Source: Bacilli bacterium (GTDB lineage Bacteria > Bacillota_I > Bacilli_A > RFN20 > CAG-826). From it: a stretch of DNA of 64,000 nt. Made by a program: the position numbers and the translations under genes. This document shows, piece after piece, positions 1,125 through 63,181 of the stretch (position 1 is its first letter; the number at the start of each line of letters is the position of its first letter). Below the pieces are notes generated by a model. That model had not been told where the DNA came from, made no database searches, and saw only the letters and a list, made by a program, of their open reading frames with translations. The stretch covers positions 711-64,710 of the forward strand of contig JAGAYY010000025.1 in NCBI GenBank assembly GCA_017940265.1, written 5' to 3'.

Positions 1125-2456
1125 ATGATTAAACTTTACGTAAATAAAGAAAGTGATATTAATTACTTAGGAAGGATAATCGAGATACAAGACTATGAAT
1201 CAATTCCTGGTGCTGATAGAATTAAGGTAGCTAGGGTATTTGGTTTCAAGGTTGTAGTAGGAAATGATGCTGAGCCAGGAAAGTATGTATATTTTCCGGT
1301 AGGTAGTGTGTTAAATCCTGAGATGTTATCTTTTCTAGGTCTATACAGAAAATCAAAGTATAATACTGACAAAACCAAAGAAGGTGACTTAGAATTTTCC
1401 GGGCGCATCAAGGGTCGGAAATTTCGGGGCATCTGGTCTGAGGGTTATTTACTTAGGATCGAGGAAGTAGAGCAATGGTTAGGGACATTTGATTCTGGAA
1501 CTATACTCTGGGCTAATGAATTTGATACTCTGGGGTGGCAAGACTCTGGTGGAAATCATTCTACATGGATCCTCAAGAAATTCTGCCCCAAGATAGAACC
1601 GACCAGAGGAAAACAGCGCCCGGATATGAGAGGAAATGTACCGGAGAGACTCTATCGGCGTATGATTCCTGGGCAATTTAACTTCCACTATGAAACGCTG
1701 CAACTAAAGTATAAGCCTGGAATTATTCGTCCTGATACTTTTTTGTGGATAACTAAAAAGGTAGATGGAACTTCAGGGATATCAGCCAAAGTATTAGTGC
1801 AGCGTAAGTCATGGGAAGTATGGAAGCCCAGGAGGTATTACGCCGGAATTTATGCCTCTAGTAGTGTTATCAAGTCTAAGTGGCTAAATCATAAGGCTGG
1901 TCCTGGTTGGTATGGAGTTGATATATGGGCTGAAGCAGATAAAGTCGTAGGCCCTAAGCTCTGGAAAGGTATGACTGCTTATTATGAGATTGTCGGATAT
2001 TTACCTAACGGAGAATTTATTCAGAAAAACAATGACTTCGGTTGTATTAAGCCGGGAGGAGATGAATTTGAAGTAGGTAAAAATTTCAGAGTCTTATTAT
2101 ATCGGATTACCTTAACTAGTCCTGATGGTGAGGTACATGAGTTTACTCCCCCTCAAGTTAAAGAATGGGCAGAGTCGGTTGGTCTAGAATCTGTTACCCT
2201 ATTGTATGAGGGTTGGGCTAAAAACTTATACCCCGAACTTGACCCTGCCAAACACTGGAATGATAACTTCATGGACAGATTATCTAAGGATTTTGGTATG
2301 GAAGGATTAGATCCAGAATGTAAGAATGAAGTTCCCCTTGAAGGACTTGTTATTCGAGTTGGAAATCTGGCTTATAAACTTAAATCAAACTTCCATCTCG
2401 AGAGAAAAGCGGCCTGGGAAGAAAGTGGTTATCAAGATCCGGAGGACTTAGCATGA
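1125..2456 (+). CDS. ATP-dependent RNA ligase (N-terminal OB-like domain plus nucleotidyltransferase, Rnl5/DRB0094-like)
   Basis: Motif I KxDG is present (ITKKVDGTSG). EGLVIRV resembles motif IV and YKLKS resembles motif V. The N-terminus (IPGADRIKVARVFGFKVVVG) resembles the OB module of N-OB RNA ligases. Confidence 0.6.
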   Translation: MIKLYVNKESDINYLGRIIEIQDYESIPGADRIKVARVFGFKVVVGNDAEPGKYVYFPVGSVLNPEMLSFLGLYRKSKYNTDKTKEGDLEFSGRIKGRKFRGIWSEGYLLRIEEVEQWLGTFDSGTILWANEFDTLGWQDSGGNHSTWILKKFCPKIEPTRGKQRPDMRGNVPERLYRRMIPGQFNFHYETLQLKYKPGIIRPDTFLWITKKVDGTSGISAKVLVQRKSWEVWKPRRYYAGIYASSSVIKSKWLNHKAGPGWYGVDIWAEADKVVGPKLWKGMTAYYEIVGYLPNGEFIQKNNDFGCIKPGGDEFEVGKNFRVLLYRITLTSPDGEVHEFTPPQVKEWAESVGLESVTLLYEGWAKNLYPELDPAKHWNDNFMDRLSKDFGMEGLDPECKNEVPLEGLVIRVGNLAYKLKSNFHLERKAAWEESGYQDPEDLA

Positions 2457-2839: not shown

Positions 2840-4946
2840 AAGATTAGAACGAATAGAGAAACTTAAACAAGTCGCGGAAACTGTTAAGACTGAGTACGTA
2901 GGTCTTGATGGAATTATTGATGAACTTGAGAAAGCTATCTGTCCTTGGTATATAACTCCGGAGATCATTGAAAGACCACAAATTATATCACTCTGGGGTA
3001 TGACTGGGACAGGTAAAACTTCGGTCGTTAAACGTTTTCTCGAACTTTTGGGTCTAATTCCTAAAACTTTGTTCTTGGATTGTGGGGAACTTGCCGGGGA
3101 TTCTGGACGCTCATTGACAGATAAAATAAATGATTACCTTGGAGAAGATGAAGATGCGATGTCTCCAGAGGGATTAGTCTTTGTTTTCGATGAATTTCAG
3201 TATTCCAGAACCTTAAATGAATCTGGGGAAGAGGTTACCAAATCAAATCTTCGACCCGTTTGGAGTTTAATAGATTCAGGTATCATTAATCTTACCGAAA
3301 ACTCTTGGGATGCTGGAACATTCGAAAGTTTTTATGAGGATTTGAGATCTTTTGCGGACTTACACCCTGGGATTGTACTAGATGAATGTAATATAATTAA
3401 TCCCGATGACGTTAAGACTATCTTAGGGGACTTGGGATTAGTCTATTTCGGACGTGGAATTCCTGGATTTATGAAACCGAAGAAATCTTATAGTCATAAT
3501 TCGGATGAAGATGCTAAAGAAGATGAGGATCCATATCGTCCACTTAGAGTTATCGAAGATAATATTGTTAGAATCTTGAGATGGAAACTTAAGCAGAGAT
3601 GTGGAATAGAATATTTTCAGTCCGTTCTTGGTAGATTAATGTCCGCCAAGACCTTGATTGAATTTGTTGATGTCTTAGGGGAACAACGTCAATATGTATT
3701 AGCCCCTAGAAATATAGATTGTTCTGGTTCGCTAGTATTCATCTTAGGAAACTTAGATGAAGCCTATCGAAGTTCAGAGGACATAAATCCAGATCTTGAT
3801 GCCGATATGTTCTATGATACAACAAGTAAAGTAACTATTTCAGATATTAAAGAGGCATTAAAGAAAAGATTTAGACCAGAACAAATTGCTAGATTTGGGA
3901 ATAACATTATTAGATACCCCTCCTTATCTCGGGCCCATTTTATTGAATTAATTGAGAAAGAATGTGATCGAGTATGTAGAAGATTCACTGAGTCGACGGG
4001 TATATCAGTTAGAGTGGCTGAAGATCTTAAGAACTTATTATACTCGGAAGGTGTTTATCCAGTCCAAGGAGCAAGACCGATTTTCACTACTATCTCAACT
4101 ATCCTAACTCCATTATTTTCTAGGATCCTGATTTTCCTCGACTCCAAAGAAAATAAAGAGTCATACAATGTTATTCTCTCATTAAATGGTCAAACTGATT
4201 TTAAACGTCAGGAAATCAAAGCTTACATAGAATATTCCGATGTTATGAGAGAGACAGTAACAGTTCCATTACAACTTGGGGCTGAACGTGATCCTGCCTG
4301 TCGGAAAACTCGAGTTCCCAATAGTGTTCATGAGTCAGGGCATGCAATCGTTATGGCATACTTAACGGGAATAATCCCCACCCAAGTAATATCGGTATCT
4401 ACTGATCATGGTGGATTTTGTCTCACCTATGATAAAGATAAACATTCAGAGATCCCCTCTCGTGGTGATATAGCTAATAATGTATGTATCGGGTTAGCGG
4501 GATACGAAGCTGAAAAATTAATCTTTGGTGAACGGTCAGAAAAATTACTGTGTGGATCAACAAGCGATATAGAAACGACTTGGAATGAATTCGCGCAAGA
4601 AGCATATCGTGGAGGATATTTTGAACCTTTCAGTTATTCTTCCTATCAAACGGAAAATACGACTGATGGGATACCTTCTGGATATGGGGATGATTGGTTG
4701 CGCGATAAAATCAAGTCGGAGTTTGATCGCTTACGTAATAACACAGTTAATATCCTGACCGAAAATAAAAAACTTCTCTGTACAATGGCAAAGAAGATGT
4801 CTGAGAGTGGTGGTCTAAGTGCCCCTGAAATAAAAGATCTCATCGACAAAAACTACGAGGGAACACTAACCTCCGAAAGACTTGCCGAAGCTGCAGAGGA
4901 TAATAGTTATTCTTGGTATCTCAAGAAACTGGAAGAACAAGTCTAA
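2832..4946 (+). CDS. AAA+ ATPase fused to an FtsH-like (M41) zinc metalloprotease domain
   Basis: Walker A is GMTGTGKTS and Walker B-like is VFVFDEF. The C-terminal HESGHAIV is an HExxH motif in FtsH-like context. No N-terminal TM helices are evident. Confidence 0.7.
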   Translation: MSERLERIEKLKQVAETVKTEYVGLDGIIDELEKAICPWYITPEIIERPQIISLWGMTGTGKTSVVKRFLELLGLIPKTLFLDCGELAGDSGRSLTDKINDYLGEDEDAMSPEGLVFVFDEFQYSRTLNESGEEVTKSNLRPVWSLIDSGIINLTENSWDAGTFESFYEDLRSFADLHPGIVLDECNIINPDDVKTILGDLGLVYFGRGIPGFMKPKKSYSHNSDEDAKEDEDPYRPLRVIEDNIVRILRWKLKQRCGIEYFQSVLGRLMSAKTLIEFVDVLGEQRQYVLAPRNIDCSGSLVFILGNLDEAYRSSEDINPDLDADMFYDTTSKVTISDIKEALKKRFRPEQIARFGNNIIRYPSLSRAHFIELIEKECDRVCRRFTESTGISVRVAEDLKNLLYSEGVYPVQGARPIFTTISTILTPLFSRILIFLDSKENKESYNVILSLNGQTDFKRQEIKAYIEYSDVMRETVTVPLQLGAERDPACRKTRVPNSVHESGHAIVMAYLTGIIPTQVISVSTDHGGFCLTYDKDKHSEIPSRGDIANNVCIGLAGYEAEKLIFGERSEKLLCGSTSDIETTWNEFAQEAYRGGYFEPFSYSSYQTENTTDGIPSGYGDDWLRDKIKSEFDRLRNNTVNILTENKKLLCTMAKKMSESGGLSAPEIKDLIDKNYEGTLTSERLAEAAEDNSYSWYLKKLEEQV

Positions 4947-8334: not shown

Positions 8335-9324
8335 CTAGTGCTTAAGCGTATCATAAAAATCAAGCAATTTAATTTTATTCCAGTCAATTCTTTCAGGTGA
8401 TCTAGAGGTTCTTGCATATTGACCTTTGACAGCATCAATATACATACTACAAGTTCCCTCATCCCCAAGGTAACATTTACTCCAAAGCTTATCTCCAACT
8501 AATTCTTTTATTCCAAGTTGTTCGGTAGCCAGATTATCAAATCCAATTGTATTATAACTATCTGGCTCTCTTTCTGTAATTAATTCAGAGATAGCTTCTT
8601 TCCACTCAGTCATGTCAGGGAGATTATTATTCCTGGCTCTCCCCCATTGTTTATATCCCAGAACTAGAATGGCCCCTTCTATATTGTTATAGAGAGTTTT
8701 TAGCTGGGATGCAGGAAAAATACCAGCAATAACATGATATACTCGATAACAACTGATATTCTCTCCTAGATCGGTTCCAGTTGAGATATCATGTGAGTAA
8801 GCGTCTTTAGATGGAGGTTCTATACCATCCATACTTTGAATACTAATCCCTACAGCGGAAACAGAATTTATTAGTTTAAGTCTTTGTTCATCTTTTCCTG
8901 GATCACCTGTACTTTTTAGATCTTTCCAGTTAATAGTTAATCTGGGCCTGTTACCTCTTTCGATTAACCACTCTATTAGGTTTAGAGCTTTTTCAGGACA
9001 TTCTAGTACATTTCCACCACCAATAGCTACTTCAATTCCTACTGGTGGAAGTTGTCCTAAAATTTCTTTTGTTTTCTCTAAGTCAAAATCTTTACCATCA
9101 GGAGTACTAGATTCATGACAGAAAGGACAACCCCAAGAACATCTTTCAGTTATTTTTAGATCAATAGAGTCTGGAAATTCTGATACGAATTCCTCATCTA
9201 CTCTAAGACATCGTTTATTAAGTCGTTCTAGTTTACGTCCTGAATATCTTGAATCATCTCCTGATACAAAATAATTTCCATTTAGATAAAAATATGAACC
9301 GCTTCTATACCTCATACGAGCCAT
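8335..9324 (-). CDS. radical SAM domain protein
   Basis: A CX3CX2C cluster motif is present in TERCSWGCPFCHESS, followed by a GGG-containing strand (AIGGGNVLE). Confidence 0.7.
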   Translation of the reverse strand: MARMRYRSGSYFYLNGNYFVSGDDSRYSGRKLERLNKRCLRVDEEFVSEFPDSIDLKITERCSWGCPFCHESSTPDGKDFDLEKTKEILGQLPPVGIEVAIGGGNVLECPEKALNLIEWLIERGNRPRLTINWKDLKSTGDPGKDEQRLKLINSVSAVGISIQSMDGIEPPSKDAYSHDISTGTDLGENISCYRVYHVIAGIFPASQLKTLYNNIEGAILVLGYKQWGRARNNNLPDMTEWKEAISELITEREPDSYNTIGFDNLATEQLGIKELVGDKLWSKCYLGDEGTCSMYIDAVKGQYARTSRSPERIDWNKIKLLDFYDTLKH

Positions 9325-24985: not shown

Positions 24986-24998
24986 CCTTATAGGTGTT
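24986..24998 (+). promoter_or_regulatory. CCTTATA-NN-TGTT box (ccttataggtgtt) abutting ATG 24999
   Basis: One half of a divergent pair with 24948-24960. Confidence 0.45.
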
Positions 24999-50544: not shown

Positions 50545-51027
50545 GGTTCCGTAGCTCAGTTGGATAGAGCAACTGCCTTTAATTATCTAGAAATAGATAA
50601 TGGAGTGCTATGGCGAGAAATCCCATAGTAGAAGTGCCCTAATTAAATACCTTAAATTTAAAGGTACGGTGAAAGTCCTTTTTATAAAAATACTAAACAA
50701 TAATGTATGAGGATAACGCCGAGCTAAATTGAAAATATGAAATAAGCGTTTGTACTTGAAGAAATATTTTCATAAATGTGTAGAGAACATAGAGGCACAA
50801 CCTAAGTTGGAATTAAGCAAGAATCATAAGACTCTTGCTTATAGAAATGTAACAATTTATCAAACATTACTTGCAAGAATTTCAATATGGTTATAACATG
50901 TTCCAGACTACAACAACATCAGCTTGTAATAAAGTGCTAGAAATAATTGGAGACTGTAATGTTGGCTATAGTAATATAGTGTAGTATGCTAAGCAGTAGG
51001 TCTTGGGTTCGACTCCCAACGGAATCA
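50545..51027 (+). tRNA. tRNA-Arg(UCU), interrupted by a group I intron in the anticodon loop
   Basis: 5' half, 50545-50579: ggttccg ta gctc agttggata gagc a actgc ctt. 3' half, 50989-51027: ctaa gcagt aggtc ttggg ttcgact cccaa cggaatc a. The spliced loop CUUCUAA gives anticodon UCU. No CCA is encoded. Confidence 0.7.
50580..50988 (+). mobile_element. group I intron (409 nt, no ORF) within tRNA-Arg
   Basis: R-like gttccagactaca (50900-50912) and S-like aatatagtgtagta (50973-50986) give a P7 of actaca/tgtagt. P1 is a hairpin capped by GAAA (50581-50601) with U.G possible at 50579/50603. The intron ends in G at 50988. Confidence 0.6.
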
Positions 51028-51066: not shown

Positions 51067-51215
51067 TTATAGATATATAAGAGAGACATAATTTAGCCTA
51101 GCTAGGTATCTAAATTTTTTTGTCCCTCTCTTACACAATTTTCTAATGAGTTTATTGTGTTTCATTCTTAGGGTTCTTAGGGCTTCTCAAGCGCGTTTTT
51201 CCAAAGTCAAGAAAA

Positions 51216-51228
51216 CCTTATTTATGTT
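51216..51228 (+). promoter_or_regulatory. CCTTATT-NN-TGTT box (gaaaaccttatttatgtt)
   Basis: Lies upstream of pncB. An in-frame ATG at 51224 sits inside the box and the ATG at 51245 lies 16 nt after it. Confidence 0.4.
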
Positions 51229-51244
51229 ATATAAAAATAAAATT

Positions 51245-52423
51245 ATGATGTTAAGTATTTTAGACACAGACTTGTACAAAGCAAGTACCTCCTATGCTTA
51301 TTGGAGTTTATATCCATTAGCAGAAGGAACATTTACGTTTAATGATCGTAATAAAGAAACTTATGATCAAGAATTCATTGATCAACTTAAGTTAGAATTT
51401 ACTAAGTTAGGATCTCTTCGCCTTAAGGATGATGAATTTGAGTGGGCAGTTAAAAAAATCCCATATATTCCTCTTCCTTTCTGGGAGTGGCTTAAGACTT
51501 TTAAATTTGAGCCCACCAAGATTCATATAGGCCTTGATTCAGAGGGACACCTAGAAATTGAAGTAACAGATTTTCTATATAAAGTTACTTGGTATGAAAT
51601 TCCAGTTTTAGCTATCGTATCTGAGCTGCGCAATAAATATCGCGGGTATATAGCTAATCATTCTAAAATGATTGAGATACTTGATGAGAAGATTAACATG
51701 GCAAATGAATATCATCTCAAATTTTCTGAATTTGGAACCCGCAGAAGATATAGCGCAGCAAGTCATGATAGCATTGTTGGCCGTTTAAAAGAAAGATGTC
51801 CGATCTACTGTGTTGGTACGTCAAATATGTACCTTGCAATGAAGTATGGAATTACTCCTTCTGGTACATTTCCTCACGAATGGATACAGGCCCATGCAGG
51901 TATGTTTGGTAATAAGAGAGCAAACTACTTAATGCTTGAAGCTTGGATCAAAGTTTACAGAGGAGATCTAGGAACTGCACTTACTGATCTTTTTGGAACT
52001 GAATCTTTCTTAAGAACATTGACAAGACAACAAGCTCTCCTGTTACAGGGTTATCGAATTGATTCTGGTGATAATTTTAAAGTTGGTAACATGATTATTG
52101 ACCGACTTAAAGAGTTTAAGATTGATCCAAAAACTAAGCTTCTTGTGTTCTCCAATGCTCTAGATTTCCCGAAGTATAAAGAAATTTATGACTATTTTAA
52201 TGGACGTATTCAAGTTAGTGCAGGTATTGGAACGAATATAACGTGTGATCCTGGAATTGATGGGTACAAACCTGCTAATATAGTTATGAAACTTAGTCGG
52301 GTTAGAATGTCTGATAAAGATCCTTGGGAAAAGTGTATCAAAATCTCAGATGATTTAGGAAAACATATTGGTGATCCTAAGGAAATTGAAATTGCTAAAT
52401 ATGAGCTTCACATTGGAGACTGA
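51245..52423 (+). CDS. pncB: nicotinate phosphoribosyltransferase (alternative start 51224)
   Basis: Motifs seen: ILDTDLYKAS, SEFGTRRR and VGTSN, all typical of PncB-type NAPRTase. The tracked start 51146 is probably too far upstream. Confidence 0.75.
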   Translation: MMLSILDTDLYKASTSYAYWSLYPLAEGTFTFNDRNKETYDQEFIDQLKLEFTKLGSLRLKDDEFEWAVKKIPYIPLPFWEWLKTFKFEPTKIHIGLDSEGHLEIEVTDFLYKVTWYEIPVLAIVSELRNKYRGYIANHSKMIEILDEKINMANEYHLKFSEFGTRRRYSAASHDSIVGRLKERCPIYCVGTSNMYLAMKYGITPSGTFPHEWIQAHAGMFGNKRANYLMLEAWIKVYRGDLGTALTDLFGTESFLRTLTRQQALLLQGYRIDSGDNFKVGNMIIDRLKEFKIDPKTKLLVFSNALDFPKYKEIYDYFNGRIQVSAGIGTNITCDPGIDGYKPANIVMKLSRVRMSDKDPWEKCIKISDDLGKHIGDPKEIEIAKYELHIGD

Positions 52424-56481: not shown

Positions 56482-57333
56482 TTAATAAGGATTTAATATT
56501 TCAATTATCTCAAGTAATCTATCTGCCTTAATAATATCTCCCGAAAGTTCTGGAAATTCTTGTAATAATATTTCCGATGTGGGAGAATCTAATTCTAAGG
56601 CTGGTTCGATGCACGGAAGAATATCAAAATTTTCTTCTTTAAAATTTTGAATTGCTATTTCAGTAAACTTGGGAACTTCAATTCTATGTGTTTTTGCTGA
56701 ATTCTTGAGTTGCAGACCACCAGAATTATTCTTGGCATAATCATTTTTCCTTTGTGTTTTAATACCAAAAACTTTTTCTACGTATCTATCTCTCGCTTTA
56801 TCCGCCTGTCTTTTATGAAGATGGGATTTATCATCCAATTCAATAATCCAACCAATATCTGGGATGAATATATCTGCACTTATATAACTTCTATACCAAT
56901 ATTCATCACTAGTCTCACCTTCTTCGGCTAGATAGGTTCTCCAAAGATCAAGGTTTGTTATTGGAATAATAAATTCTTGGATACAAAGAAATCCCGGACA
57001 GGCTTCTCTAATATGTTTATAGAAAAGTTTTTGATTTTCTGATGATCTAGCCCTCTCTAATAATGAATTCTTTTTTCTACCTTGTCTATTATCACATAGA
57101 TTAATCCACTCATGTTTTGGGTTTGAAGTTATTCCTTCTAGATATCGGCGATTCTTTAGGTATAAGGGGCATTTTACTTTTCCAACATCACTATAACTAA
57201 AAATCCAATTATTGGAACCACCTCTTTTAGTGATTCCATCAAACACAATTTTTTCAAAATTAACATCCATCATCAATAAGGAATACTTCGCTGATGGGAC
57301 GTGTTTTAAGAAAATAAAAAAAAGATTTCCCAT
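56482..57333 (-). CDS. putative PD-(D/E)xK nuclease-fold protein (DUF559/Vsr-like core)
   Basis: SADIFIPDIGWIIELDDKSH matches the aDf...iiElDGxxH pattern. Confidence 0.4.
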   Translation of the reverse strand: MGNLFFIFLKHVPSAKYSLLMMDVNFEKIVFDGITKRGGSNNWIFSYSDVGKVKCPLYLKNRRYLEGITSNPKHEWINLCDNRQGRKKNSLLERARSSENQKLFYKHIREACPGFLCIQEFIIPITNLDLWRTYLAEEGETSDEYWYRSYISADIFIPDIGWIIELDDKSHLHKRQADKARDRYVEKVFGIKTQRKNDYAKNNSGGLQLKNSAKTHRIEVPKFTEIAIQNFKEENFDILPCIEPALELDSPTSEILLQEFPELSGDIIKADRLLEIIEILNPY

Positions 57334-57349
57334 AAACTTAGGAAATCTG

Positions 57350-57421
57350 TAGCCGGTAGGAGAGTCGAACTCCTCTTTAGAGAATGAAAATCTCTCGTCC
57401 TAACCGATAGACGAACCGGCC
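57350..57421 (-). tRNA. tRNA-Glu(UUC)
   Basis: A canonical 72-nt cloverleaf on the minus strand: ggccggt tc gtct atcggtta ggac g agaga ttTTCat tctct aaag aggag ttcgact ctcct accggct a. Confidence 0.85.
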
Positions 57422-57426
57422 CTACT

Positions 57427-57439
57427 AACATATATAAGG
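57427..57439 (-). promoter_or_regulatory. CCTTATA-NN-TGTT box (ccttatatatgtt) 5 nt upstream of tRNA-Glu
   Basis: Lies between the terminator hairpin and the tRNA 5' end. Confidence 0.5.
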
Positions 57440-57440
57440 A

Positions 57441-57470
57441 ATTAAAGGGAGGGTTTTATCCCTCCTTTTA
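57441..57470 (-). terminator. hairpin terminator
   Basis: Stem aagggaggg/ccctccttt overlapping the stop codon of the small ORF. Confidence 0.5.
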
Positions 57471-57569
57471 CTTTTTAAGCTCTGAAGCAGTATCTGCAAT
57501 AAGAGCTACGTTCAAGAAAATGGTTGCTACTGCTACCACAATCTTACAAATTGCTAATGATTTTTTCAT
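57468..57569 (-). CDS. 33-aa hydrophobic peptide (MKKSLAICKIVVAVATIFLNVALIADTASELKK)
   Basis: Not in the ORF track because it is under 60 aa. It has an ATG, one TM-like segment, and a terminator directly after it. Confidence 0.3.
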   Translation of the reverse strand: MKKSLAICKIVVAVATIFLNVALIADTASELKK

Positions 57570-57582
57570 AATGTTTAATTGT

Positions 57583-57864
57583 TTAATTATTAATCATGAC
57601 CTCTTTGATCATGTAGTAATGTAGATAGAACACATTAATATTAGCTCTTAGTTCGCTCTCTATGTTCCATCGTTCTAGTTTCTGCAAATCTTCCGGAGCA
57701 ATTTTCTTTACCCGGTTAATAAGTTCTTCTAAATCCTCAAGTTTAACTACCCGACAGATCTTTTCTTTCTTTTGATCATCTTTAAGTAACGATCCTATAA
57801 ATGCAGCATCTTTTTCTAATTTGATGATTTCTTTTGCTGTTAAAATATTTACTAATTTGTCCAT
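57583..57864 (-). CDS. hypothetical protein
   Basis: 93-aa ORF. Confidence 0.45.
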   Translation of the reverse strand: MDKLVNILTAKEIIKLEKDAAFIGSLLKDDQKKEKICRVVKLEDLEELINRVKKIAPEDLQKLERWNIESELRANINVFYLHYYMIKEVMINN

Positions 57865-57897
57865 AATGTTTGTTATTTGTTTCGAAGAGGAGTTGGT

Positions 57898-58185
57898 TTA
57901 TTCCTTCTCCTCAAAAATGTGAACTCGATAACCCATGTCGTTTGAGAAACCAATCCACTCAGTTCCATCATTGCCTCGGATTAATCGAGATTTTGTTACT
58001 CCAATACACTCTTTTATGTTTCCGTCTTCTTCTACAGACTGAAAAAGATTCACATATTTTTTGTAATTTTCACCACCTACGAGTGTAATTTTGGTTTCAT
58101 TAGTTCCAGTAAAGAACTCTACTAGATTACCATCTAAAACTATTCCATGATGGTCATTCTCACTTAAATAAATTTTTACTTTCAT
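57898..58185 (-). CDS. hypothetical protein
   Basis: 95-aa ORF. Confidence 0.45.
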   Translation of the reverse strand: MKVKIYLSENDHHGIVLDGNLVEFFTGTNETKITLVGGENYKKYVNLFQSVEEDGNIKECIGVTKSRLIRGNDGTEWIGFSNDMGYRVHIFEEKE

Positions 58186-58227
58186 ATTTTAATTTTTAGT
58201 TATAGTTCTTAAAAAATAAATATAGAA

Positions 58228-58297
58228 TCAATAATCTAGGATTCGAACCTAGGACCTCTAAATTTCTCTAGCACTCTACCATCTGAGCTAATTATTT
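58228..58297 (-). ncRNA. tRNA-like RNA lacking an anticodon loop (GAAA tetraloop in its place)
   Basis: The minus strand reads aaataat ta gctc agatggta gagt g ctaga GAAA tttag aggtc ctagg ttcgaat cctag attattg a. The D-arm, variable loop and T-arm are canonical. The anticodon stem is capped by only 4 nt. Confidence 0.55.
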
Positions 58298-58302
58298 TCT
58301 TC

Positions 58303-58315
58303 TACATATATAAGG
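58303..58315 (-). promoter_or_regulatory. CCTTATA-NN-TGTA box (ctgaaaaccttatatatgta) 5 nt upstream of the tRNA-like gene
   Basis: Same spacing as at tRNA-Glu and tRNA-Arg. Confidence 0.5.
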
Positions 58316-58377
58316 TTTTCAGCCTTCCCGAGACGGTCAGTTTTGCGCCTCTGAAAAGGGAAGAATCTTATTTATAT

Positions 58378-58887
58378 ATGAAGATAGTTTTAATAGAAGA
58401 AATGGTGAGCATTAAAATATTTAATGCCGCCACAAATGGAGTTTGGTTTAGACGTCCGAAGATAAACTTAGAAGGAGTAGATAGTAAGTACATAGAAGAG
58501 TATGAAGATTGGGAAGGTAAGAAGTGTTTGAGATTTAATTTTGAAGAATATGCAAAAGATCATCATGAATTAGACTGTACGATTGATTATCCATTATCTA
58601 CTAAATGTGATTTTAAAATAATTCTTCCCGAAAATAAATGGAGACCCGGAGAATATGTATTTAACACAGAGGATATAGTAGATCAAGTATGTAAGAAATA
58701 TCATGAAATATATCGAGAAGAATCAGAAACTCTAACTAAAATAGATAAACCTAATCCACATCTCATTAATCGGGGCTTCTCTAATGGAAAATGGGGAATT
58801 TGGGGACATGATATAGGAGATCTAGTTCTTGAAGAGATTTCGTTAGATACAGAAAAACATAGAATAAACTTAGAAATTGGATCTTGA
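58378..58887 (+). CDS. hypothetical protein
   Basis: 169-aa ORF. Confidence 0.5.
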   Translation: MKIVLIEEMVSIKIFNAATNGVWFRRPKINLEGVDSKYIEEYEDWEGKKCLRFNFEEYAKDHHELDCTIDYPLSTKCDFKIILPENKWRPGEYVFNTEDIVDQVCKKYHEIYREESETLTKIDKPNPHLINRGFSNGKWGIWGHDIGDLVLEEISLDTEKHRINLEIGS

Positions 58888-59201
58888 ATATGAAAACAGG
58901 TATCGAATTAATTGCAGACGAAAGAAAACGTCAGGTTGAGGTAGAAGGTTATACATCACAACATGATTCTCAACATAATGCAAGTGAGTTTATATATGCA
59001 GCAATTGCATATATTGAGGCTGCTAAAGCTGGAGTAAACTGCGATGAAATGAATATTAAAGATGAGCTCAAAATTAGCAGATATAAAAATGAGAAAGGTA
59101 AAATTTTTCCCTGGGGTGATTGTAATTTTAAACCAACAACTAACATTCGTGATTTAGTAAAAGCGGGCGCATTAATTGCTGCTATTGATAGATTACAATA
59201 A
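58884..59201 (+). CDS. hypothetical protein
   Basis: 105-aa ORF. ERKRQVEVEGYTSQHDSQH is a helical N-terminal pattern that I could not assign. Confidence 0.45.
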   Translation: MNMKTGIELIADERKRQVEVEGYTSQHDSQHNASEFIYAAIAYIEAAKAGVNCDEMNIKDELKISRYKNEKGKIFPWGDCNFKPTTNIRDLVKAGALIAAIDRLQ

Positions 59202-59206
59202 ATAAA

Positions 59207-59237
59207 AATATGTAAGATTTTTATAGTCTTACATATT
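59207..59237. terminator. bidirectional hairpin terminator
   Basis: 11-bp stem aatatgtaaga/tcttacatatt between convergent genes. Confidence 0.55.
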
Positions 59238-59619
59238 TATTTTTACTTGAGAATAAAAGAACCTTAACAGAAAGTTCTGCATTCTCATCTGTATTAGAAG
59301 TTATCCTATATTTTCGTTTCCTTGTATGATATATCCACCTAACATCTCTTAACTTATTATCTGAAATAGACCAATTTTTCAGGTCATGGCCATTGATAAT
59401 TCCAAATTTAGTAATACTATTATCGCCTACTTCTATATTATTAAGATCTTCTGGTAAAATAAAAGCTTCGGGCGAATAAAGTTTTTCTATCAGCCAATCA
59501 TACCCTGAGTCTACATCATCTTTTGTTATATAGATTGGGTATTCACAACATAACTTGATTAGGTCTTCATCTATATTGAGTGGTCTAATTAATATTACTT
59601 TCGACATATATACAACCAT
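59221..59619 (-). CDS. hypothetical protein
   Basis: 132-aa ORF. Confidence 0.45.
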   Translation of the reverse strand: MVVYMSKVILIRPLNIDEDLIKLCCEYPIYITKDDVDSGYDWLIEKLYSPEAFILPEDLNNIEVGDNSITKFGIINGHDLKNWSISDNKLRDVRWIYHTRKRKYRITSNTDENAELSVKVLLFSSKNKYVRL

Positions 59620-60083
59620 CTAGGTTCATATACACAAGTTCCTAGTCTGCATTTAAGAGGTGGATTTGTTTTGTGTATATAAAGAAACGCTATATAAGAA
59701 AGTCCATGATTTACTGTTTTAGCAATACATTGAAATTCATTAGTTTTATAAGAAAAACTATATTCATTGCCAAAACTAGTTTTCTCAATCCAAGTATACG
59801 GTTTTATTACTTCAATCGTTTGTCGCGTATCATAAAATCTAACAAAAATTCGTTTATCATATAGAGTTACAAATTTTCTTTCCCATCTTTGTTTAAGTCG
59901 GTAATAATCTAATTCTGTTGTACTTACCGCTAGGGATTCACTATTTTCATCTCCATTAAGTTTATAAATCCCACCAAATATTATTTCATATGAGGCTCCA
60001 ACAGATTTTAGATCTTTAATAATAGTATTTATTATTTGACTTAATTTAGCTTCTTTAGATTCAATATTTATTATGTAATGCAT
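59595..60083 (-). CDS. hypothetical protein
   Basis: 162-aa ORF. Confidence 0.45.
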   Translation of the reverse strand: MHYIINIESKEAKLSQIINTIIKDLKSVGASYEIIFGGIYKLNGDENSESLAVSTTELDYYRLKQRWERKFVTLYDKRIFVRFYDTRQTIEVIKPYTWIEKTSFGNEYSFSYKTNEFQCIAKTVNHGLSYIAFLYIHKTNPPLKCRLGTCVYEPRWLYICRK

Positions 60084-60507
60084 TTTCTAGGGCTAAACAA
60101 TAATATATATCTCTTTCAAAAGTATCTGGAAAATATAGAATATCTAATCTTGTTTCCTTAGTAACATCAACGGCAGTGACGTATCCGAAGTTATCAGAAT
60201 TAGATTTTCGCACATTAGATGGAAGAAAAGGTTTAATTTCTTCCTCACTATATATACTAATATCTAATATTTTTCTACTCCTATACTTATTCCCTTTTCT
60301 AGATAAGATCTCTATTGCTAATTTATTATAATTATTATTTTTAGTAATTCCAAATATTATTGATTCTGACAATTCATTCTCAAAACTATTGATCTTAAGA
60401 ACTCTGTTTGTCATTTCAACTATATTACTGTTTATGTATTCAATAACCTCTGAGAGTTTAGTACAACCTACATCATCTAATAATTTAATTGAAATATATA
60501 AATTCAC
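60061..60507 (-). CDS. hypothetical protein (GTG start inside the promoter-like box)
   Basis: 148-aa ORF. Confidence 0.4.
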   Translation of the reverse strand: MNLYISIKLLDDVGCTKLSEVIEYINSNIVEMTNRVLKINSFENELSESIIFGITKNNNYNKLAIEILSRKGNKYRSRKILDISIYSEEEIKPFLPSNVRKSNSDNFGYVTAVDVTKETRLDILYFPDTFERDIYYCLALENALHNKY

Positions 60508-61291: not shown

Positions 61292-62120
61292 GAAAAATAA
61301 ATTATTAGAATTATATAATAAATATGTTTGGGCAGAGAAACCGGATATAAATACAATTAGAAGTGAATTTTCTTTGCCCTCTAGTAGCTTACCAGATATA
61401 CTCAAAATATTGAATGATATAAAATCAATATCATTAGAAGATCTGACCAAAATTACTATTCCAGATAATTCAGTATCTGGTAGAAAAGCTATTTATATAC
61501 CTAATAAATTTTTTAGCTCTTTTGTTAATTATTTTCCTTGGGAGACATTCGCACTAAACTACAACAGTCCTATTATTGGAATGGCAACTGTATGGTCCAT
61601 TGAAGATAAACTTAAGTGTGATCTAAGAGAAGTTCCTAAGGTTTATACCGGAACAGAAAACTTATGGAACATAATTATACCAACTTTATCCGAACTTATT
61701 AAAACACAAGAATGGTACGGCTTTAATTTAGGTGATCCATATAATAAACGCAGGAAAAGACCTATAGTACGAAGAAAAATAGAAATCCTTGAAGTTCAGA
61801 TTGATAAGTATTCTTCATATTATGGCAGATATTCTAATATCAACGCTTATGGAATAGATGTAAAAACTGGCCAAAATCTGTGTTTAATTGGATCAAATGG
61901 TTGGAACTTATATCTCTCAGAGGAAATTATGAATCAAAGGTTGGAAGATCTTGAGAATTATTGGATGAGAGGCTATGATGAAAAAGTTCGAAGTCTTGAA
62001 ATCCAAATACAAAACAAAGAATCTGAGATTAAAAACCTTAAGGAAGAAAGAAAAAGAATGATGAATTCTATAGATGAATATAAAAAAGAATTAGATAAAA
62101 TAGTATGGAAAGACTTTTAG
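61287..62120 (+). CDS. hypothetical protein with a C-terminal coiled coil
   Basis: The start is trimmed to the first ATG (the tracked start 61263 is non-ATG). Confidence 0.45.
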   Translation: MMKNKLLELYNKYVWAEKPDINTIRSEFSLPSSSLPDILKILNDIKSISLEDLTKITIPDNSVSGRKAIYIPNKFFSSFVNYFPWETFALNYNSPIIGMATVWSIEDKLKCDLREVPKVYTGTENLWNIIIPTLSELIKTQEWYGFNLGDPYNKRRKRPIVRRKIEILEVQIDKYSSYYGRYSNINAYGIDVKTGQNLCLIGSNGWNLYLSEEIMNQRLEDLENYWMRGYDEKVRSLEIQIQNKESEIKNLKEERKRMMNSIDEYKKELDKIVWKDF

Positions 62121-63181
62121 ACTTTTTAGACATTGCACTTATACCTTCTGAGAAAAATAGTGGGACTGGTAAATACAATTTTAGTGTTACAGATGAGCTA
62201 GATAGAAGTCAAAGTCTCCCGATTTTTACTTCACCAATGGATTCGGTTGTTAGTGAAAAGAATTGGGAGGTTTATAATTCTAATGGTATCAAGCCAGTAC
62301 TCCCCAGAACATCACCTTTAAATGTTAGACTCGAGGGTTGTCAGTATGTTTTTGCTGCATTCTCATTAAAAGAAGTTCAAGATAACTTCCTTCTAAGAAA
62401 ACGGATTTCACAAATGCAATTTAAGGTTTGTATTGATCCTGGAAACGGACATGATACTAAGATCTTCGAATTGGGGAAAGCACTAAAAGCAATGTATGGG
62501 CCTCAGATCAACCTAATGGGAGGAAATATTGGATCCCCCAAGGTATATGGTGAATACTGTAAGACTGGGTTTGATTATGTTAGGGTAGGTATGTCAGGCG
62601 GTTCATTGGTAGATCCTGGAAAATATGGGTTCTATTATCCGCAAGCCTCACTCTTAATTGATATCCTAGGAGTTAAGAATACAGCACTAACTGGACTTAA
62701 ACATACAAAGATAATTTCTGATGGGGGTATTAAAAATCCTTCCGATATTCTCAAGGCTATAGCACTTGGAGCAGATTATGTAATGATTGGTAGAGAATTT
62801 GCAAAACTTTTAGAAGCTGCGGGTCCTTTATTTCAAAAAACCGAGAAGGGTAAGGAACTCGTAACTGATCCTACTATATTGGCCGATCTTCCTGATACCG
62901 AGCTTAAAGATTCTGGACTAATTCGATATTATTCAGGTTCCACATCTTTAGAAATGCAAGCTAGAAGAGGTGGCTATGAAGATATACATGATTGGCTTGG
63001 TGCTCCTGGTATGAAACGTAATCCCTCCGACTCTAGAACTGACGAACTAAAAGTTACTAAATCCTTGAAGACTTGGTTAACTGAAATGTATGACTGTTTT
63101 GGATATGGATTTACTATGAGTGGAGCAAAAGATTGGCAGACATTTAAATCTAATGCAAAGTTCGTTCAAGTTCAGATATGA
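62105..63181 (+). CDS. IMPDH/GMP-reductase family TIM-barrel protein (GuaC-like, no CBS domains)
   Basis: FLDIALIPSE resembles FDDVLLVP. ISDGGIKNPSDILKAIALGADYVMIG matches the phosphate-binding region. Confidence 0.65.
   Translation: MERLLDFLDIALIPSEKNSGTGKYNFSVTDELDRSQSLPIFTSPMDSVVSEKNWEVYNSNGIKPVLPRTSPLNVRLEGCQYVFAAFSLKEVQDNFLLRKRISQMQFKVCIDPGNGHDTKIFELGKALKAMYGPQINLMGGNIGSPKVYGEYCKTGFDYVRVGMSGGSLVDPGKYGFYYPQASLLIDILGVKNTALTGLKHTKIISDGGIKNPSDILKAIALGADYVMIGREFAKLLEAAGPLFQKTEKGKELVTDPTILADLPDTELKDSGLIRYYSGSTSLEMQARRGGYEDIHDWLGAPGMKRNPSDSRTDELKVTKSLKTWLTEMYDCFGYGFTMSGAKDWQTFKSNAKFVQVQI

Follow-up and report, generated by a model that had tools for sequence, protein, structure and literature searches.

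An anticodon-less, tRNA-shaped RNA gene in an apparent jumbo phage, and a recurrent short-arm design in phages and bacteria

A tRNA-like gene without an anticodon

The stretch of DNA considered here, referred to as the window, comprises 64,000 nucleotides (nt) of contig JAGAYY010000025.1 (assembly GCA_017940265.1, filed under Bacilli bacterium), and it looks like part of a jumbo phage. Its minus strand carries a gene, termed here the element, for an RNA that keeps the cloverleaf and the conserved tertiary nucleotides of tRNAs and has a GAAA tetraloop where the anticodon loop should be. An earlier note, made from the sequence alone, had proposed that this is a purposeful, non-decoding, tRNA-shaped gene and not an artefact or the outcome of random decay. 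The recurrence of the same design in other genomes, together with strong covariation in its short stem, supports this proposal. The parts of the element are as follows.

58228..58297, minus strand: anticodon-less tRNA-like RNA gene, comprising tRNA positions 1-72 and the discriminator A at 58228 (Rfam, covariance model R2, minimum-free-energy fold)
58273..58288, minus strand: D arm, GCTC-AGATGGTA-GAGT, with a stem of 4 base pairs (bp) that includes G10:U25 (sequence)
58258..58271, minus strand: short arm at the site of the anticodon arm, made up of CTAGA (58267-58271), GAAA (58263-58266) and TTTAG (58258-58262)
58236..58252, minus strand: T arm, CTAGG-TTCGAAT-CCTAG (sequence, cmscan alignment)

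The element is 70 nt long. Read from 58297 to 58228, its 5' half is AAATAAT / TA / GCTC-AGATGGTA-GAGT / G / CTAGA-GAAA and its 3' half is TTTAG / AGGTC / CTAGG-TTCGAAT-CCTAG / ATTATTG / A. The acceptor stem (AAATAAT/ATTATTG) consists of six A-U pairs and an A1/G72 mismatch and is followed by A73, the variable loop has 5 nt, and the short arm is a stem of 5 bp, including one G:U pair, that is capped by GAAA, a tetraloop of the GNRA type. The positions that make the standard tertiary contacts of tRNAs are all present (U8-A14, G15-C48, G18/G19 with T55/C56, T54-A58, G26/A44, G53-C61 and G46). U8 and A9, the D arm, the 5-nt variable loop, the T arm, the almost entirely A-T acceptor stem with its A/G mismatch at 1-72, and the 5-bp stem with GAAA and no anticodon had all been described in the earlier note, and each is borne out on re-examination.

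The Rfam tRNA model RF00005 matches exactly 58228-58297 (E 1.9e-7), and the score of 49 bits exceeds the gathering score of 29. In the cmscan alignment, the 4 nt of GAAA stand against the model's 7-nt loop, and pair 1:72 is flagged as non-standard. The minimum-free-energy fold computed with ViennaRNA is the cloverleaf, with a folding-energy z-score of 0.16 that is ordinary for such an A/T-rich sequence. As had been anticipated, ARAGORN makes no call at the element; its sole call is the neighbouring tRNA-Glu at 57349-57421. Measured against canonical tRNAs, the element has the required cloverleaf with conserved tertiary nucleotides but lacks a 7-nt loop with U33 and a three-base anticodon. Because a GAAA tetraloop on a 5-bp stem replaces the anticodon loop, the element cannot decode codons and offers anticodon nucleases no loop. 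Acceptor stems of the window's real tRNAs are rich in G/C; thus, the A/U acceptor of the element is not an effect of genome composition. A model search with filters off found no second copy in the window.

No isotype of origin could be assigned, because a CTAGA/TCTAG stem occurs in phage tRNAs with TGT, TGC, GAA, TGG and CAT anticodons as well as in tRNA-Lys(TTT). One such gene is an unannotated, apparently normal tRNA-Lys(TTT) of Streptococcus phage Javan389 (L235, MK448748.1; 16581-16646), which lies between the genes for a transcriptional activator and a terminase and has the CTAGA/TCTAG anticodon stem, as in the window element. A K-turn was considered for the G/A-rich nucleotides that link the acceptor stem to the flanking helix and was rejected, the strand lengths being unsuitable. 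Likewise, the GAAA-tetraloop receptor (CCUAAG...UAUGG) has 7 matches in the window, compared with 1.9 in shuffles (maximum 8), and none is convincing as a receptor helix. One of the hairpins nearby, the terminator hairpin after tRNA-Glu (57330-57342, minus strand), contains CCTAAG-TT-TATGG, that is, both strands of the classic 11-nt receptor. These strands are only 2 nt apart, so a receptor helix is impossible there, and the likeness is probably coincidence.

The upstream box and the putative transcription unit

The element is flanked on the same strand by a promoter-like box, a T-rich trailer and small open reading frames (ORFs), whose lengths are given in amino acids (aa).

58303..58315, minus strand: promoter-like box CCTTATATATGTA, 5 nt upstream of position 1 (motif enrichment; presumed promoter)
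58211..58227, minus strand: 3' trailer TTCTATAT-TTATTTTTT (flank-pairing and T-run analysis)
57898..58185, minus strand: 95-aa ORF with its ATG at 58185, starting 42 nt downstream of the element; called in 10 of 10 related assemblies
57583..57864, minus strand: 93-aa ORF, second gene of the putative unit (gene call; no family match)
57468..57569, minus strand: hydrophobic small ORF of 33 aa, last of the three genes in the putative unit; also called, with 33 aa, in loci L008 and L010
57444..57465, minus strand: terminator-like hairpin (GGAGGGATAAAACCCTCC with a T-rich tail) just before the tRNA-Glu box, which would end the unit

The box had been reported to stand at much the same distance from the element as from two genuine tRNA genes. 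This holds: the same box precedes tRNA-Glu by 5 nt and a split tRNA-Arg gene by 6 nt, and its motif is enriched in the window, where 10 matches are found with one mismatch allowed, compared with 2.2 expected (0 of 100 shuffles reach 10). The sites of this motif, CCTTATANNTGTA, are 10389, 24986, 43444, 43512, 49438, 50526, 57427, 58303, 60505 and 60528, and those at 24986 and 60528 are directly followed by ATG. Several copies contain TAnnTTTG, the -7 promoter element of Bacteroidota. The box at 58303-58315 contains TAnnTnTG, which is similar to this element, and the phage also encodes its own RNA-polymerase subunits.

The trailer starts with ATTCTATATTT, has no encoded CCA and contains a T-run at 58211-58220. 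Nucleotides 58220-58227 can pair with 58300-58307 (ATGTAGAA) to form a longer acceptor helix, although the 5' partner overlaps the box and thus possibly lies outside the transcript. Scans of the interval between the element and the 95-aa ORF revealed neither a terminator-like site nor a further copy of the box. Therefore, the element may be the 5' module of an operon, instead of or besides being a free small RNA. For the 95-aa protein, we found no homologues and no family match, and its AlphaFold model has a mean pLDDT of 43, which is too low for use. The flanking small ORFs gave no matches to Pfam, PHROGs or NCBIfam.

Ten independent assemblies

The downstream protein is carried by at least 24 contigs, and ten of these loci, from different ENA and Logan samples and assemblers, were compared. 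The GAAA arm is identical in all ten. Since ten independent assemblies share the loop, a 3-nt assembly deletion, which had been raised as a possible source of the tetraloop, is excluded. The ten strains differ by 13 single-nucleotide polymorphisms across 6.2 kb (0.2% divergence). Only one of these falls inside the element, at 58273 (tRNA position 25), where T or C gives G10:U25 or G10:C25 and the D-stem pair is kept. Strains this similar are too alike for selection on this copy to be measured.

Recurrence and covariation of the short arm

To be recovered by our pattern scan, a locus needed only GGTAGAG, a GNRA sequence at the tetraloop site and GGTTCGAATCC at the right spacing; the ten stem positions were left free. 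The scan, an incomplete census, yielded 7 loci in viral contigs, 59 loci (46 distinct sequences) in metagenomes and 24 loci in GTDB genomes. In the metagenome set, the free 5+5 nt pair perfectly in 29 of the 46 distinct sequences and form four of the five pairs in 6 more. About twenty stem sequences are represented, and the probability that five pairs arise by accident is below 1%. Across 44 distinct sequences, 82.7% of the short stem is paired, and changes on both sides occur at all five pairs. The covariation score of the stem in this set is 0.742 compared with 0.188 in shuffles (0 of 500 reach it), and sliding the partner by one to three columns lowers pairing to 52% or less.

A looser scan of viral contigs (GGTAGAG, 18-25 nt, then GGTTCGAATCC) produced at least 45 well-formed cloverleaves in which the arm is a 3-6-nt loop on a 4-6-bp stem. 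Rfam labels such short-arm elements as plain tRNA. A scan of genomes for the arm specific to the window gave no matches. Thus, a tRNA body with a short capped stem in place of the anticodon loop is a repeated, structurally constrained design. These data show that it has been kept by selection across many lineages.

Three genomic contexts

The first context, (a), is found in Proteobacteria (Xanthomonadaceae, Burkholderiales, Methylophilaceae, Sphingomonas and others) and in many soil contigs. Elements there lie a few hundred bases from genes for an SPFH/Band-7 protein and the RNA ligase RtcB. An SPFH gene, an RtcB gene or both reside within a few kb of 17 of the 24 genome loci and of at least 25 of the 59 metagenome loci, which shows that in bacteria the design is tied to RNA-repair genes. 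In many cases, CCA and a second tRNA-like unit come after the element; this unit combines a 7-nt loop with almost no acceptor stem. At L170 (10496-10636), and also at L203, L155, L173 and L226, the anticodon-less unit (6-bp acceptor, A, CCA) is followed by CTG and then by the second unit. In these Band-7/RtcB loci, the 7-nt loop of the second unit lacks U33 and its acceptor has only 2-3 bp, so that the two tandem units look complementary in their missing parts.

In the second context, (b), several viral contigs hold an element within arrays of tRNA genes or beside another tRNA, and some of these copies have an encoded CCA (L017, L093, L136).

The third context, (c), is a promoter-proximal position in phages. 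An upstream terminator is followed there by a promoter-like sequence (typically TTCGCG...AAA...(C)CTTATNATG) and, past a few purines, by the tRNA-like element; a T-run and a ribosome-binding site then lead to an ORF. Of the 12 loci checked, 10 have the start of this ORF 29-48 nt downstream of the element. The order is shared by at least five sequence families (L038/054/079/082, L026/106/110/122 with L036, L067, L074, L108, and L152, L192/194/204 and L208). Their contigs, which come from the gut and the rumen, have ribosome-binding sites in the Firmicutes style. Genes downstream of the elements are mutually unrelated and include PHROG 2152 membrane proteins, PHROG 10740 and a nuclease. The acceptor stems are purine-rich on the 5' side, with pairs 1-3 mostly A-U, and about 11 members have flanks that can pair to extend the acceptor helix, together with a T-run. 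In three gut viral contigs (L026, L038 and L074), the elements precede arrays of paralogous membrane-protein genes (PHROG 2152-like, with an N-terminal KHSPEILTG... motif) and lie downstream of small conserved ORFs (PHROG 11237 and 17256).

One phage with such an element, the Faecalibacterium phage FP_oengus (L234, NC_047916.1), carries it unannotated at 2940-3009, with a 4-bp stem and a 6-nt loop. Within the region examined (2900-3090), GGCGCGAAAAA...CTTATGG, a promoter-like sequence of the type seen in context (c), lies upstream of the element and a T-run downstream. The promoter-like sequence is repeated about 100 nt downstream, ahead of gp06. Because of this second copy, the element of FP_oengus looks like a separate small transcription unit.

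The window element belongs with the phage leaders

For this analysis, we defined a leader class of elements with an arm of 12-16 nt (4-6-bp stem, 3-6-nt loop) on an otherwise complete cloverleaf, an adjacent upstream promoter-like sequence, a purine-rich A/U 5' strand of the acceptor, a T-run, and an ORF on the same strand within about 30-50 nt. The window element has an arm of this kind and the same surroundings, namely the box at 58303-58315, the acceptor strand AAATAAT, the T-run at 58211-58220 and the ATG at 58185. It thus fits the promoter-proximal leader position of context (c). The upstream boxes can also be compared directly, the sequence being CCTTATAATG in L067 and CCTTATATATG in the window.

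The nearest relatives are rumen sequences (L192/194/204). They have the same D arm and the arm CTAGA-GAAA-TCTAG, with C where the window element has the T that forms the G:U pair. Compensated changes separate them from the window element in the T stem (ATCGG/CCGAT versus CTAGG/CCTAG) and in the acceptor stem (GAAGGTA/TATCTTT versus AAATAAT/ATTATTG). The earlier note had held that relatives with a normal 7-nt loop would mark the element as a decayed tRNA. No such relatives were found, and in the nearest one, L192, the arm is GAAA-capped. Among GenBank phages, no relative of the region was detected at the DNA level; the best match to the element there is a tRNA-Gly, at 79%.

In an alignment of 17 leader sequences, including that of the window, 91% of cells are paired over the four helices of the cloverleaf and 87% over the short arm. 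A promoter-like sequence, a purine-rich A/U 5' strand of the acceptor and a T-run are common to all 17. The window sequence was left out when covariance model R2 was built; its score on this model is 71 bits, within the range of the class (E 4e-21, although E-values of the models built here are rough). Ordinary tRNAs mostly score 20-57 bits in the same search, with some overlap up to 64.

Comparison with known RNAs

The closest described counterpart is b7a-tRNA (Band-7-associated tRNA-like RNA), predicted by Burroughs and Aravind (Nucleic Acids Res 2016, as cited in bioRxiv 10.1101/312249). In its passage on this RNA, the YrlA structure preprint from the Wolin laboratory notes a strong likeness to real tRNA, calls the RNA experimentally unvalidated and mentions a possible role in RNA ligation (bioRxiv 10.1101/312249). 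We matched the elements of context (a) to b7a-tRNA because their linkage to SPFH and RtcB genes agrees with the description in that passage. Judged from the Band-7/RtcB-linked loci retrieved here, b7a-tRNA and the window element share a tRNA body in which a 5-bp stem with a GNRA tetraloop takes the place of the anticodon loop. Both lie upstream of protein genes on the same strand, and their scores on R2 are similar (65-77 bits for the linked elements, 71 bits for the window element). However, the window element is borne by a phage, its acceptor is all A/U, and it has neither a tandem second tRNA-like unit nor an encoded CCA, whereas loci of Xanthomonadaceae and Burkholderiales (compare L170) have both. 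Moreover, tblastn searches of the 64-kb window with SPFH and RtcB queries gave no matches at E < 1e-5. The element resembles b7a-tRNA yet lacks, within the window, the genomic features of that family.

Bacterial Y RNAs (YrlA and Yrn1 of D. radiodurans) are also non-coding, keep the D/T elbow and tertiary contacts, and do not decode. In Yrn1, the "anticodon" stem is 5 bp long and its loop is shortened (Chen et al. 2014, PMC4201824; bioRxiv 10.1101/312249), and Y RNAs with tRNA-like modules occur in bacteria and phages (PMC4201824; bioRxiv 10.1101/312249). YrlA RNAs bear tRNA-type modifications, and that of M. smegmatis is cut by RNase P and gains CCA (PMC4201824; bioRxiv 10.1101/312249). In contrast to the element, Y RNAs have a helix that binds Ro60 (Rsr) and adjoin rsr, and the 5' and 3' ends of YrlA emerge at the position of the anticodon stem. 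A relaxed Rfam scan (E up to 10) of 56500-60500 matched only tRNA, and no Y-RNA model, to the element, and no TROVE protein is present among the 20 window ORFs scanned with Pfam.

Like the element, tmRNA is a tRNA mimic without an anticodon and is processed by tRNA enzymes. Unlike it, tmRNA has no true D stem or anticodon arm, contains a reading frame for a tag and uses G3:U70 for alanylation. ARAGORN finds no tmRNA in the window, Rfam reports only tRNA, and positions 3:70 of the element are A:U.

Viruses of eukaryotes also encode tRNA-shaped RNAs that are processed by tRNA enzymes and do not decode, including the vtRNAs (TMERs) of murid herpesvirus 68 and the 3' tRNA-like structures of plant viruses. 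The latter are the aminoacylated 3' ends of RNA genomes. These RNAs belong to other hosts and polymerases and have no sequence relationship to the element.

Canonical phage tRNAs are phage-encoded and tRNA-derived as well, and those of the window, tRNA-Glu and tRNA-Arg, have the same promoter and gene layout as the element. They bear on defences that target tRNAs: phage tRNAs with altered anticodon loops or stems evade host nucleases (eLife 2023, PMC10264068; NAR 2025, PMC12445682). However, they keep the 7-nt loop and decode, whereas the element has no anticodon. A literature search, which was not exhaustive, found no account of phage-encoded tRNA-like genes that lack an anticodon or carry a tetraloop.

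Interpretation

The reading we favor, with a probability of roughly 0.55, is that the element is a genuine, non-decoding tRNA mimic of a jumbo phage that acts in trans, possibly with a side-effect in cis. The element looks selectively maintained. In the mechanism that we envisage, the box would be a promoter with a transcription start about 3 nt before position 1, as the likeness of its core to TAnnTTTG suggests, and the element would be the first product of a small operon that continues with the 95-aa, 93-aa and 33-aa ORFs and ends at the hairpin at 57444-57465. The tRNA body would be recognized by RNase P, RNase Z and the CCA-adding and modification enzymes, with YrlA as a precedent, and a stable tRNA-shaped RNA would result. 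Its function presumably requires this body (the acceptor/T-arm stack and the D/T elbow) and not an anticodon. It might be a decoy or competitor for proteins that grip the elbow and the acceptor end of tRNAs, uncleavable since the loop attacked by anticodon nucleases has been removed. It might also be a cofactor in the repair of cleaved tRNAs, as proposed for b7a-tRNA. After its release, the RNA would act in trans, and it might have a second, protective or marking role at the 5' end of its own mRNA. A decoy or cofactor based on the tRNA body, in a conflict over tRNA cleavage and repair, is the most likely role; transcription, processing and any such activity of the element are inferred. The roles suggested in the earlier note, as a decoy, a mimic of enzyme substrates or a primer, are likewise speculative.

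Several observations weigh against this reading. The downstream ORF has no box of its own, which favors a role in cis, as a leader, over that of a free RNA. The acceptor stem, with its six A-U pairs and A1/G72 mismatch, could weaken recognition by RNase P or the CCA-adding enzyme. The SPFH and RtcB genes, the second tRNA-like unit and the encoded CCA that mark the bacterial loci are missing here. The class itself may be polyphyletic, in which case function need not carry over from one context to another, and the anchors of the scans (GGTAGAG and GGTTCGAATCC) skew the sample towards look-alikes. Finally, the collections hold no orthologue of the locus at intermediate divergence, so that purifying selection on this copy has to be argued from the class. 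The neighboring protein is either at least 94% or at most 45% identical between loci: the 169-aa neighbor has no homologue between 94% and 45% identity, and its homologues, at most 52% identical in one search, come from loci without tRNA-like genes. The 283-aa neighbor has no viral relatives.

The strongest rival is that the element is purely a 5' leader in cis, without any function in trans, which stabilizes the mRNA, marks it for processing by RNase P or RNase Z, or acts as an attenuator through its closing helix and U-tract. We regard this as a serious possibility, although an unlikely one. The uninterrupted 42 nt before the 95-aa ORF, devoid of a terminator-like site or a second box, is what a leader would be expected to have, as is the gene order shared by at least five phage families whose downstream genes are unrelated. 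The flank pairing that extends the acceptor, combined with a T-run in about 11 members, would suit an attenuator, and purine-rich, A/U-rich 5' strands of the acceptor suit a transcription start within or beside the stem. However, a plain hairpin would suffice for stabilization or termination, yet every tertiary contact of tRNA is kept, which points to a partner that binds tRNAs. In FP_oengus, the second promoter-like copy separates the element from the next gene, and the members in tRNA arrays or at Band-7/RtcB loci are clearly not mRNA leaders. In the window, the 5' strand of the extended helix mostly overlaps the box and may escape transcription.

It is also conceivable, but rather improbable, that the element is a cofactor of the b7a-tRNA type whose partner would be RtcB or another RNA ligase, encoded in a different part of the roughly 394-kb phage genome. 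The architecture of the RNA is indistinguishable from that of the Band-7/RtcB-linked elements (71 versus 65-77 bits), most matches of the GNRA type adjoin SPFH and RtcB genes, and RtcB is present on some viral contigs with short-arm elements (L087). A candidate RNA-repair enzyme might even be encoded by the same phage. The ORF at 1125-2456 (plus strand) encodes 443 aa, and over about its first 100 residues this product has a weak similarity to the OB domain at the N terminus of DRB0094-type RNA ligases (Pfam PF21189, E 1.7e-5; TIGR02306, E 5e-6). Yet both scores are below the curated cut-offs, the ORF lies 56 kb away and has no sequence match in the PDB, and the window contains no RtcB or SPFH homologue. 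The absence of a tandem second unit and of an encoded CCA again differs from the bacterial loci, and the function of b7a-tRNA is itself, in the passage cited, a prediction (bioRxiv 10.1101/312249).

A recently decayed tRNA pseudogene, in which a once-functional phage tRNA lost 3 nt from its anticodon loop, is still harder to sustain. The near-identity of the sampled strains (0.2% divergence) means that conservation among them proves little, and the CTAGA/TCTAG arm is common to ordinary phage tRNAs of several isotypes. However, the loss must have left exactly a GNRA tetraloop on a perfect 5-bp stem, and the same outcome is seen in dozens of unrelated sequences with covarying stems, as well as in an independent rumen phage with the same arm. 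The loop is the one deviation from the tRNA pattern, every tertiary position and the promoter-like box have been preserved, and the all-A/U acceptor is a trait of the phage leader class that the real tRNAs of the window do not share. It is scarcely credible that an artefact of assembly or sequencing deleted 3 nt, or that the element is a tRNA that decodes through an unusual loop, because the ten assemblies, obtained from different samples with different assemblers, agree base for base, a 4-nt loop without U33 is too small for three free anticodon bases, and alternative registers give 6- or 8-nt loops that also lack U33.

Other features of the window

Our survey of gene content covers the 64-kb window of a phage genome of roughly 394 kb; the longest contig with the 95-aa protein has 394 kb and is assigned to a metagenome-assembled genome labelled "Bacilli bacterium". 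The resemblance to a jumbo phage lies in pieces of a multisubunit RNA polymerase, a family-B-like DNA polymerase, helicases, Lon/Clp-like AAA proteases, a dNMP (deoxynucleoside monophosphate) kinase and an NAMPT-like protein. Auxiliary metabolic genes include the following.

8335-9324, minus strand: radical-SAM protein
51146-52423, plus strand: nicotinamide phosphoribosyltransferase (NAMPT)-like protein
62105-63181, plus strand: IMPDH/GMP-reductase-like protein

The split tRNA-Arg(TCT) gene, at 50545-51027 on the plus strand, is interrupted in its anticodon loop by an insert of roughly 409 nt. Its 5' part is GGTTCCGTAGCTCAGTTGGATAGAGCAACTGCCTT, its 3' part is CTAAGCAGTAGGTCTTGGGTTCGACTCCCAACGGAATCA, and the box in front of it is CCTTATAACTGTA. 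ARAGORN makes no call there, and the insert has no match to group I or group II introns in Rfam at relaxed thresholds.

Significance

Cleavage or modification of tRNA by the host is now recognized as a major anti-phage strategy, and phage tRNAs are being reinterpreted as countermeasures. If our favored reading is correct, a phage RNA that keeps everything except the decoding part, which is also where most nucleases cleave, would amount to another type of countermeasure or regulator, namely an RNA decoy, a cofactor or a 5' cap. More speculatively, the window element and the promoter-proximal elements of gut and rumen phages, including that of FP_oengus, might form an undescribed and widespread class of early, abundant RNA anti-defense factors that act in trans, either by using the tRNA body to soak up host nucleases and sensors directed at tRNAs, with no loop left at which to be cleaved, or by aiding the repair of cleaved tRNAs. 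On present evidence, we consider this broader proposal doubtful.

The analysis connects three things for the first time: the predicted b7a-tRNA beside RtcB genes, odd "tRNAs" in phage arrays and a promoter-proximal element of gut and rumen phages. Such elements are currently missed by tRNA finders or misfiled as tRNAs. Because the host of FP_oengus, Faecalibacterium prausnitzii, is cultured, the idea that phages of this kind deploy a tRNA body without its anticodon is directly testable.

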